Of a stretch of DNA of 32,000 nt, positions 7,101-9,024 are shown piece by piece; the stretch's first letter is position 1, and each line of letters begins with the position of its first letter. Both the position numbers and the translations under genes were made by a program. Source of the DNA: Geotalea uraniireducens Rf4 (lineage in GTDB: Bacteria > Desulfobacterota > Desulfuromonadia > Geobacterales > Geobacteraceae); the NCBI RefSeq assembly GCF_000016745.1, contig NC_009483.1, positions 2,100,001-2,132,000 on the forward strand. Reading direction: 5' to 3'. The notes beneath the pieces were generated by a model. That model worked only from the letters and a program-made list of their open reading frames with translations. It did not search any database and was not told the DNA's origin.

Positions 7101-9024
7101 TGTAGCTCCCACGGCGCTTGATTTCGGTACCATAGCCTTAAGCAATTCGAAGACAATGCCGGTGACCATTACCAATACCGGTAATGCCCCATTAAGTATT
7201 ACAGGAATTACCAATCCGGCAAATCAAGCATTCACGGTTTCCTATATCGGGACAGTACCGTTAACCCTCTTGCCGAACACAAGCTTTACGGTAATGGTTA
7301 CCTTTACATCCAATGTTGCCGGTGCATTCACCTCAAGCTTCATTATCAACACGGATGCTTCCAATGGTAATCAGACGATCAATCTGCAAGGAAACATGTC
7401 TAATTTTACAATTACGACGCCCTCTCTTCCCCAGGCGCAACTAAACGCTGCGTATAGCCAGACTTTGGCTGCCACGGGCGGACGAGTCCCTTATGCATGG
7501 TCGATTTCACAAGGTGCTCTGCCGACCGGACTGAAGCTTGCTTCCGCAACCGGCGTAATCAGCGGCAAGGTAACTGAGCCGGGAAAATATGACTTTACAG
7601 TACAGGTGACCGACTCCGATGGCAGCATTGCAACAAAGACGCTCTCAATTGCCACGGCAACAGCTGCGACGCCTCTATCCGTAACGACTATTAATATGCA
7701 AAGCGTGAACAATGGGGCTACCTACAGTCAACCGCTTTCCGCAGCCGGCGGCAATCTACCTTACAGCTGGTCTATAGTTAGCGGTACGCTTCCACCAGGT
7801 TTGAACTTGGACTCTGCAACAGGGAATATCAGTGGAACGGCTGGAGGCGGGGGAGACTATAACTTTGTTGCCCAGGTTATCGACAATAATCTGTCGTCTG
7901 CAGTCAAGCTACTTACCATAACGGTAAATAACAGTGCGGTGAGTTCAGGCACGGTGATTTTTACCGATGTGAACAGTGCGCAGATAAATAGTTGCGACTT
8001 CGGCAGCGTTCTCAGGGGGACAACAAGCCAGATAAAAACATTCAGACTACAGAATAACGGCGCAACGGATCTGGTCATTTCCGACTATTCCTTTGCTGAC
8101 CCTGCGTTTATGGCAATTATTGTCAAGGGCTCTACCTTAAAAGTCGGCCAATCGCTGCTGATTAACGTTTCATTCACTCCCCAGTCACTTAAGACCTATA
8201 CCGGCGATCTGACTATAACCACGCAGGTAGGAAGCAGTTACAAACTGCCGATCACAGGAACAGGCGCTACTGCAGTCGCCTCGGTTGCTCAGGGAAGCAG
8301 CGGCTCGACGTCCACAACTGCCGCATATTCTTTTACCTTGGACCCGACTACACCGTTGCTCAATACCACGGCAAAACCAACCGGTTTCACCATTGCCAAT
8401 GCTATTGCCACGCGGGTGGATAATGTTGTCCCATCGGGAACGGTAAATATCGATGTCGACTTTGAGTCGTTGCCTGCAAACCCTGTATTCTACAAGGTGG
8501 TCAACAATGTCTGGACTCAGGTCACACCTGTCAGTCAGAGTGGTAATAAGGTTACCATAGCACTCACTGACAATAATGCCCTGCTGGATGGGGACCCGAC
8601 GCCAGGAATCATCCAGGACCCGCTTGTGGTCGGCACTACCGAAGGTATAATTCCAGACCCTGTCGGCCCCCCAGGGGTAAACAACCCACCACCGTCATCT
8701 GGGGGCAAGAGCGGATGCTTTATTGCGACTGCAGCTTATGGCAGTTATCTTGATCCGCATGTCATGGTGTTGCGGCATTTCAGAGATAACGTGTTGTTGA
8801 AGTCTAAAGCCGGTACAGCATTCGTAAATTTCTACTATAAATACAGCCCGCCTGTAGCCGATTATATAAGAGACCACAAGGCATTGCGGATTCTTACACG
8901 TTTGGCTCTTACACCTTTAATTATTTCTGTAGAATATTTCTGGAGCTTTTCGTTTATAGTACTTGGAGGGATTTGTCTTACTTTATTCAGAATCAAACGG
9001 CGGCGCGAAATTTTGAGCACTTAG
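4144..9024 (+). CDS. giant surface lipoprotein (1626 aa): propeller-like repeats, choice-of-anchor-D/ASH-like domains, putative Ig (He_PIG-like) domains, and a C-terminal [9 protein letters not shown]-box membrane anchor
   Basis: One uninterrupted 4881-nt ORF with lipobox VIGC (Cys22). Repeated blades ([72 protein letters not shown]) span about aa 75-665. Four tandem ~95-aa LDFG.V.VG....F.V.N.G...L.I modules span aa 672-1084, and a fifth spans aa 1268-1374. Two LP.A..NAAYSQ.L.A.GG..PY.WS...G.LP.GL.L....G.ISG modules span aa 1088-1261. The C-terminus reads [28 protein letters not shown]...[13 protein letters not shown], followed by a hydrophobic helix and RIKRRRE. Confidence 0.9.
   Translation: [1626 protein letters not shown]

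Follow-up and report, generated by a model that had tools for sequence, protein, structure and literature searches.

A giant lipoprotein gene of Geotalea uraniireducens with a C-terminal CFI box: a probable autonomous helical domain rather than a short cleavage motif

Four described types of C-terminal sorting signal, namely PEP-CTERM with exosortase, LPXTG with sortase, GlyGly-CTERM with rhombosortase, and MYXO-CTERM, share a layout in which a signature of 3-6 residues stands right before a terminal membrane helix and a basic cluster, and in which a dedicated enzyme co-occurs with the signal. They also have in common several paralogues per genome, diverse surface passengers and neighboring choice-of-anchor domains, and MYXO-CTERM contains an invariant Cys. 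A further C-terminal element is the sorting domain of type IX secretion systems (T9SS; Por_Secre_tail, CHU_C), which is a folded beta-sandwich of 70-80 amino acids without a membrane helix that occurs on large multi-domain surface proteins and belongs to Bacteroidota-type secretion. Here we analyze a 32,000-nucleotide stretch of Geotalea uraniireducens Rf4 (contig NC_009483.1, positions 2,100,001 to 2,132,000; hereafter the window) that encodes a giant predicted lipoprotein ending in a domain of the curated NCBIfam family CFI-box-CTERM (NF041770), a family on which we found no literature. The CFI box resembles the four sorting signals in its C-terminal position, in the terminal helix and basic cluster, and in its paralogues, passengers and choice-of-anchor neighbors, and it shares the invariant Cys with MYXO-CTERM. 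Unlike those signals, what is conserved is a 69-residue helical domain with a motif that lies far from the helix, and the family includes members with no helix or no signal peptide. Like the T9SS domain it is folded, C-terminal and found on large multi-domain surface proteins; in contrast to that domain it is helical, is usually accompanied by a membrane helix, and extends to monoderms, candidate phyla radiation (CPR) bacteria and archaea.

The features of the giant protein and its surroundings are collected in Table 1. Its C-terminal region matches NF041770 over profile positions 1-69 of 69 with a score of 106.6 bits relative to a cutoff of 40 (E 4e-31), and no Pfam model covers the region. 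The giant protein therefore belongs to the curated family, which bears out the first-pass annotation of this DNA, where a 'CFI-box C-terminal domain' had been named, and the resemblance to the CFI box is far beyond chance. Like the rest of the family, the protein matches the full profile, has a domain that begins with Cys-Phe-Ile and is placed at the C-terminus, and bears a Gly-rich linker ahead of it, and no feature distinguishes it; its Cys1525 lies 102 residues before the stop, and the family median is likewise 102. AlphaFold2 models the core as an all-helical module with helices at residues 1527-1532, 1537-1549, 1555-1577 and 1579-1597, where a short helix lies over IATAAY and the long last helix includes the membrane segment. 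The predicted local distance difference test score (pLDDT) is above 85 from residue 1543 on and only ~58-70 over the CFI motif, and a Foldseek search of the model against the PDB gave 0 matches. When hydropathy was scored in 19-residue Kyte-Doolittle windows, strongly hydrophobic values (1.5-1.8) were observed only at residues 1587-1617, the only other window of interest being a marginal one at residue 222. This segment is followed by RIKRRRE, which confirms the hydrophobic span and basic cluster that had been read at the C-terminus. The C-terminal string quoted in that reading was otherwise exact, although it started one residue before position 8716 (at Gly1524) and missed the last four residues, ILST. 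A six-frame scan of the window found no CFI box besides that of the giant protein.

The module is also recurrent, as had been supposed. When 1.84 billion representatives at 50% identity were searched with a profile made from the C-terminal region, 29,328 clusters matched at E<=1e-3, 23,527 at E<=1e-10 and 3,695 at E<=1e-30, and CFI-box-CTERM is among the largest protein modules that have been named but have no assigned function. A pattern scan for CFIATAAY in one genome per species gave at least 600 stretches, 588 of which were confirmed. The best 80 loci (L001-L080) come from Geobacteraceae, Desulfuromonadaceae, Nitrospirota, Nitrospinae, Gammaproteobacteria, Syntrophales, Sulfurimonadaceae, Ca. 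Manganitrophus, Bacillota and two CPR lineages, and the family as a whole ranges over diderms, monoderms, CPR bacteria and one archaeon (on a Haloquadratum plasmid). Several genomes contribute two of the best 80 loci, and some loci contain two or three CFI genes in tandem. The position of the box is highly regular, with the Cys 78-124 residues from the stop in 82 of the 83 open reading frames (ORFs) of these loci, and the box ~100 amino acids from the C-terminus in nearly all top matches. Gly and Ser account for 43% and 17%, respectively, of the ten positions that precede the Cys in 82 family members, a hydrophobic segment equivalent to the helix of the giant protein is present in 79 of 82 members from genome contigs, and the net charge after the helix averages +3.8 in the family. 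Passengers are diverse and include FN3, PKD, DUF11, RHS, immunoglobulin (Ig)-like, protease-like and beta-propeller domains. The giant protein, which has a signal peptide, a Gly/Ser-rich linker, the helix and the basic cluster, falls within an exported helix-bearing subclass, a subdivision of our own making.

Regarding the motif itself, alignment A1, which holds 76 sequences from a word-indexed search, shows invariant C, F, I, A, T, A, A, G, L41, Y62, S66, P67 and A70. Since CFIATAAY was the search pattern, its invariance among L001-L080 arises by construction, and the word-indexed alignment and the pattern-searched loci both overstate the invariance. Variants that were seen include CFVATAAYGT (P0165), CYIATMAYG and CFIASAVYG. 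As a separate observation, the largest CFI subfamily in the 80 loci consists of 11 members of ~650 amino acids (L021, L024, L028, L030, L039, L048, L049, L052, L053, L058, L069). One of these, L049_2, contains an HExxH-like metalloprotease motif, several others start with 'GTLDDYYLQQFGE' after the signal peptide, and some of their loci have common neighbors that include SAH hydrolase and a Skp/OmpH-like protein.

Not all members of the family are exported or possess a helix. A tblastn search of plasmids with the CFI box returned 155 records, among which are eight CFI members in which neither a signal peptide nor a membrane helix with basic tail occurs; six of these plasmid proteins were scored and all exceeded the NF041770 cutoff with 46-87 bits. 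The matches to NF041770 comprise a TPR protein on a 5.2-kb plasmid of Acinetobacter lwoffii, a Burkholderia protein with a cold-shock domain and CxxC pairs, a protein with Mrr_cat and WYL domains that adjoins a restriction endonuclease in the archaeon Haloquadratum walsbyi, a 571-amino-acid helical protein that adjoins an Hsp70-family gene in Haliscomenobacter, a protein on a Ralstonia megaplasmid, and a CAP-domain protein of Paracoccus. Two further CFI proteins of ~140 amino acids lie by PD-(D/E)XK nuclease genes on Xanthomonas and Rhodanobacter plasmids, that of Rhodanobacter being also near helicase-family genes. In the plasmid ORFs L081:1333-2184, L082:3653-4234, L083:2236-3270, L084:1507-3222, L087:3321-3746 and L088:3309-3728 the box is joined to TPR, cold-shock or Mrr and WYL domains, or stands nearly alone. 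The vicinity of nuclease, helicase and Hsp70-family genes suggests a mobile-element or defense role for these plasmid proteins; in PADLOC the CFI core itself matched no defense model. A second kind of exception is provided by two exported CPR members that end directly after helix 4 (L023:5381-6532 from Parcubacteria and L078:3082-3960 from Saccharibacteria), for which no membrane helix or basic tail exists in the protein or downstream in any frame.

Judging from their sequences, the plasmid members appear to be cytoplasmic, and together with the helix-less CPR members they argue that the 69-residue core is an autonomous domain that occurs on both sides of the membrane, whether or not a helix is present. 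The CFI core is an autonomous small helical domain and not a short cleavage motif, and it is consistent with an autonomous core that the curated NF041770 model stops before the helix. The NF041770 family thus includes apparently cytoplasmic helix-less members, and the giant protein is in its lipobox-bearing subset. In a check on peripheral membrane binding, the last helix was amphipathic and cationic in three of the eight helix-less members.

At its other end the giant protein carries a lipobox, which proved to be real. The lipoprotein rule applied here comprises a basic n-region, an h-region of 7-22 residues, a lipobox of the form [LVI][ASTVI][GAS]C and a Cys at 15-35, and the N-terminus of the giant protein agrees with it in having K5/R8 in the n-region, a 12-residue h-region and VIGC with Cys22. 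The protein is accordingly a predicted substrate of the Lgt/LspA pathway that follows the standard rule for bacterial lipoproteins, and by the same rule Cys22 would be lipidated. Each of the seven close homologues of the N-terminal module that are complete has both lipobox and CFI box, OR1_00108 of Geobacter sp. OR-1 among them, and so have the Geobacter-type loci L001, L002, L004, L006, L009 and L011. Among the best 150 profile matches, which, as matches to this window went into the profile, are biased to helix-bearing members, a lipobox occurs in ~30 of 83 (~35%) full-length proteins with a recognizable signal region. Most of the lipobox-bearing members are longer than 1000 amino acids, and the other CFI members mostly have ordinary type I signal peptides. 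The combination of lipobox and CFI box is conserved and not accidental.

Information on the orientation of the C-terminus comes from rare fused ORFs (P0213, P0220, P0230 (= L065:548-2149), P0165 and P0167), which may be natural polyproteins or read-through errors. In these the order is fixed, the CFI core being followed by the helix, the basic cluster, a signal-peptide-like segment and then the next domain, which is the outer-membrane beta-barrel Phenol_MetA_deg in three cases and a second CFI protein in two. This is the order that an N-out/C-in stop-transfer helix predicts, and it supports a location of the CFI core of the giant protein on the periplasmic side. The helix and positive-inside charges of the giant protein follow the rule of type I bitopic proteins with a stop-transfer anchor, so that stop-transfer anchoring and a periplasmic core are both predicted. 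As for the earlier suggestion that the protein is tethered at both ends, the lipobox together with the helix and basic tail upholds it for the protein as synthesized, while processing of the C-terminus would still be compatible with this arrangement. To our knowledge no protein class with both ends anchored has been described.

The interpretation that we favor, although tentatively, is that the giant protein is held by both ends and that its CFI core is most likely a self-sufficient module beside the membrane, perhaps one that self-associates or docks. According to this interpretation the lipoprotein signal peptide would direct the protein through Sec, Cys22 would be lipidated and the signal peptide then removed as the lipobox rule predicts, and ~1,570 residues comprising the beta-propeller, the Ig-like domains and the choice-of-anchor U domain would cross the membrane. 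Transfer would then halt at the helix at residues 1598-1615 and leave RIKRRRE in the cytoplasm, as is suggested by hydropathy, by the positive-inside rule and by the topology of the fused ORFs. The CFI core (residues 1525-1593) would be periplasmic and lie beside the inner membrane, where the disordered Pro/Gly linker would join it to the passenger. The membrane helix and basic tail would act as the anchor, with the core self-associating or docking, and the invariant Cys-Phe-Ile-Ala-Thr-Ala-Ala-x-Gly would form the interface or reactive site of the core.

Several observations weigh against this interpretation, and most of them favor the alternative that the CFI box, helix and basic tail constitute a cleaved sorting signal. 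In that alternative a trans-acting enzyme would read CFIATAAYG on the outer side of the inner membrane and would cut near the Gly-rich linker or the Cys, the passenger would be released or moved to a lipid, glycan or wall acceptor, and in the case of the giant protein Lol could then carry the N-terminal lipid to the outer membrane. First, the nine-residue motif with its lone Cys is invariant in A1 and is nevertheless the least confidently modeled part of the core, which suits a site that is recognized or modified by something else. Second, several paralogues per genome, with tandem copies at some loci, very diverse passengers and adjoining choice-of-anchor domains (D and U in the giant protein) are typical of sorting signals, and the Gly-rich linker, helix and basic cluster are laid out as in the known ones. 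Third, distant relatives of the N-terminal module of the giant protein end in T9SS sorting domains instead of a CFI box. Fourth, lipoproteins of E. coli that have no Asp at +2 go to the outer membrane. None of the lipobox-bearing CFI members among the best 150 profile matches has Asp at +2, so that by the E. coli rule the outer membrane would be their destination, a difficulty if the C-terminus is retained in the inner membrane. Finally, the neighborhood analysis described below would miss a trans-acting enzyme whose gene lies far from those of its substrates.

A handful of loci also lie beside genes of known export or matrix systems, which counts for the sorting-signal alternative as well. 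Exosortase genes are near CFI genes in two of the 80 loci (L012 and L033), the XrtA-system kinase PrsK adjoins CFI genes at L035 and L033, and a capsule/Wzz/tyrosine-kinase locus adjoins two CFI genes of Desulfoscipio (L014). A link of some CFI proteins to matrix or exopolysaccharide loci, and not to a dedicated enzyme, is hinted at by these cases.

Despite these points we regard cleavage by a sorting enzyme as unlikely, if still the most serious competitor. In agreement with what had been noted from the sequence, the window encodes no sorting enzyme, there being no sortase, exosortase, rhomboid or CPBP protease. When the 1,073 ORFs within +/-10 kb of the 80 loci were clustered, no non-CFI protein family was present in more than 7 of the 80 neighborhoods, and the clustering brought out no protease or transpeptidase. 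Most frequent among the non-CFI families were sigma-54 response regulators (seven loci), histidine kinases (six) and a 192-amino-acid lipoprotein (six), with PilM, PepP and SAH hydrolase as further recurring neighbors. Polytopic neighbors were assessed by a crude hydropathy count, in which 91 ORFs scored at least three hydrophobic segments, and no polytopic membrane family of the 80 loci was found in more than five (PrsK-type kinases), the next being present in four (MacB/FtsX permeases); sorting proteases of the CPBP or rhomboid type would belong to this polytopic class. An hmmsearch of the flanks with a hidden Markov model (HMM) of the core only revealed no divergent CFI boxes. The construction of the box is also unlike every known tripartite signal, in that the folded unit is 69 amino acids long and the motif of the giant protein lies ~55-70 residues upstream of the membrane helix. 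Moreover, the occurrence of the domain on apparently cytoplasmic proteins, where signal-less and helix-less members pass the family cutoff, argues against a simple sortase-type sorting signal, as do the exported CPR members that have no helix. A single extracytoplasmic enzyme would also need to be nearly universal if it were to serve monoderms, diderms, CPR bacteria and an archaeon.

Direct comparison with the individual sorting systems gave the same picture. The residues of the giant protein before the helix (...TPLIISVEY) contain no PEP and no PEP-CTERM model was matched in NCBIfam at E<=10. The last 120 residues lack an LPXTG motif, no corresponding HMM matched, and the window has no sortase. 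The C-terminal 140 amino acids have no Pfam or NCBIfam match to Por_Secre_tail or CHU_C, and the model is all-helical. Likewise no MYXO-CTERM or GlyGly-CTERM HMM matched the giant protein (NCBIfam, E<=10). The analogy to PEP-CTERM/exosortase or LPXTG/sortase systems that the first-pass annotation had drawn for the C-terminal module is thus unsupported, given the 69-residue helical domain set apart from the helix, the lack of a recurring partner in the 80 neighborhoods, and the plasmid and CPR members described above.

A broader version of the docking idea is that the CFI box, instead of being a sortase-type signal, is an autonomous module for membranes or assemblies that functions on both faces of the cytoplasmic membrane by self-association or Cys chemistry, and that the Geobacteraceae giants are doubly tethered, the inner membrane holding the helix and the outer membrane possibly the N-terminal lipid. 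We consider this composite proposal somewhat less probable again than a cleaved sorting signal. With its beta-propeller and at least eight Ig-like domains, a doubly tethered giant is long enough to bridge the periplasm, and the giant gene appears to be co-transcribed with pilQ.

A third possibility is that the CFI core processes itself, the invariant Cys attacking the preceding peptide bond by the N-to-S acyl shift known from inteins, Hedgehog proteins and Ntn hydrolases. The N-terminal part would thereby be freed without a partner enzyme, in a manner workable in either compartment, and this self-contained chemistry would explain both cytoplasmic and exported members and the absence of a conserved neighbor, of which there would be no need. 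The invariant Cys comes right after the flexible linker, Gly stands at -1 in 62% of members, and R20, R23, D24 and T5, which show little or no variation, could conceivably aid catalysis. However, the predicted fold is helical and not Hint or Ntn, with no match in the PDB, position -1 is variable, and no conserved His or GDPH-type site is present, nor did we find any literature on such a reaction in this family. We therefore considered a Hedgehog/intein-like 'G|CF' junction improbable, as position -1 is Gly in no more than the proportion given. Autocleavage of the GDPH/DPH type at an Asp-Pro bond in 'LDPHV' was rejected, since in this 'DPH' the Asp is conserved in 46% and the His in 48% of members. 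Lastly, the reading in which the C-terminus is an ordinary membrane anchor whose likeness to the CFI box is incidental and functionally meaningless is effectively refuted, for although a C-terminal helix and basic tail suffice alone for anchoring, they do not account for the full-length HMM match, for the 40-57% identity shared with hundreds of C-terminal domains that sit on unrelated passengers, or for the more than twenty thousand clusters matched at E<=1e-10.

Table 1. Features of the giant lipoprotein gene and of selected genes in the window (positions are those of the window)
Feature	Position	Strand	Evidence
pilP	70-621	+	PilP Pfam match
pilQ, type IV pilus secretin	634..3468	+	TIGR02515, 468.7 bits
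192-amino-acid lipoprotein, lipobox LLSC	3480..4058	+	translation
Giant lipoprotein gene, 1626 amino acids, C-terminal CFI-box-CTERM domain	4144..9024	+	ORF list, translation
Predicted lipoprotein signal peptide, residues 1-22; lipobox VIGC, Cys22 codon 4207-4209	4144..4209	+	read from sequence
N-terminal all-beta module, residues 40-680: beta-propeller, inserted beta domain, repeated W-x-D-x-R blades	4261..6183	+	AlphaFold2, Foldseek
Ig-like array: five choice-of-anchor D (ASH/HYDIN/DUF1573-type) and two He_PIG domains	6184..8283	+	Pfam, NCBIfam NF012200
Choice-of-anchor U domain, residues 1421-1497	8404..8634	+	NF041766, 37 bits vs cutoff 32
Pro/Gly/Ser-rich flexible linker, residues 1498-1524	8635..8715	+	read from sequence
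CFI-box core, residues 1525-1593: CFI motif, then three helices	8716..8922	+	NF041770, full profile
Single predicted transmembrane helix, residues 1598-1615	8935..8988	+	Kyte-Doolittle, 19-residue windows
Predicted basic cytoplasmic tail including RIKRRRE	8989..9021	+	read from sequence
Strong intrinsic-terminator-like hairpin, 14-bp stem and T run, 41 nt past the stop	9065..9106	+	terminator scan
108-amino-acid lipoprotein, lipobox LAAC, downstream of the terminator	9139..9465	+	Pfam DsbC_N, translation
Multihaem c-type cytochrome, 1626 amino acids: Cytochrome_C7, MtrC/MtrF-like domain, five Geobacter CxxxxCH...CXXCH motifs	23595-28475	-	
168-amino-acid protein without family match	28497-29003	-	
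925-amino-acid NHL/beta-propeller protein with glucodextranase-B and bacterial Ig domains	29041-31818	-	

The part of the giant protein that lies upstream of the CFI box is built from the domains listed in Table 1 and a flexible connection. The N-terminal module has no match in Pfam; AlphaFold2 models it with a pLDDT of 87 and a pTM of 0.82, and in Foldseek it loosely resembles sialidase, DPP and other beta-propellers with a low TM-score of ~0.35. The segment just before the CFI box had been taken for a stalk or linker, which holds for the Pro/Gly-rich part, as AlphaFold2 leaves this linker disordered (pLDDT 55-59), and does not hold farther upstream, where the sequence is a choice-of-anchor U domain. 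A word-indexed search with the choice-of-anchor U and linker region returned no homologues. As an aside on the N-terminal module, several of its distant relatives (P0140-P0143, P0152, P0154 and P0160, with P0140 labeled Chloroflexi) share a hydrophobic C-terminal tail, for example '...IYLPLVLRN(S/Y)', which may represent a further C-terminal signature.

With regard to genomic context, the giant gene has a ribosome-binding site, GGGGA, located 6 nt 5' of its ATG, and a 16-kb Logan contig holds an identical giant protein with the same neighbors. The gene for the 192-amino-acid lipoprotein, which has no Pfam or NCBIfam match, is directly upstream of giant homologues in L001, L002, L004, L006, L009 and L011, and the order pilQ, 192-amino-acid gene, giant gene is kept in L002, L004, L009 and L011, all Geobacteraceae and including Geomonas oryzae S43. 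The terminator scan found no plus-strand terminator-like site between pilQ, the 192-amino-acid gene and the giant gene. Given the conserved order with pilQ and the strong terminator that follows, the pilMNOPQ transcription unit may have the giant gene as its last member. The small lipoprotein encoded past the terminator consists of the DsbC N-terminal (dimerization) domain alone, without the thioredoxin part, and its gene follows giant homologues in L005, L009 and L011. Farther downstream the gene order is aroC, aroK, aroB, a TPR protein, a 130-amino-acid hypothetical protein, aroQ, pepP, accB, accC, gcvH and a VitK2_biosynth (menaquinone-biosynthesis) gene, and other genes of the window encode NUDIX, DUF6811, pgm, nifU, nifS, a multihaem cytochrome and an NHL/Ig protein.

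The cytochrome has the same length as the giant protein. An inverted duplication behind the two 1626-residue ORFs was ruled out, as there are no inverted repeats and no similarity between the proteins, and with the cytochrome being unrelated to the giant protein the equal length is a coincidence. Together with the 925-amino-acid protein and the 168-amino-acid protein beside it, the cytochrome may form another large envelope-protein cluster.

Although the domain itself was already curated, this analysis adds how large and widespread the family is, that lipobox and CFI box recur together, and that this architecture has a conserved partnership with a small lipoprotein and is syntenic with pilQ in Geobacteraceae, and it shows that the core extends beyond exported helix-bearing proteins. 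The name and layout of the CFI box invite a sortase-like assumption. As the core also occurs on apparently cytoplasmic defense-like proteins and on exported proteins that have no helix, with no partner nearby, annotation and surface-proteome pipelines should not treat it by default as a cleaved anchor. With its conserved lipobox, its small lipoprotein and its pilQ synteny, the Geobacter-type family, which occurs in the cultured Geomonas oryzae S43 and Geobacter sp. OR-1, provides a concrete system for the function of the CFI box.

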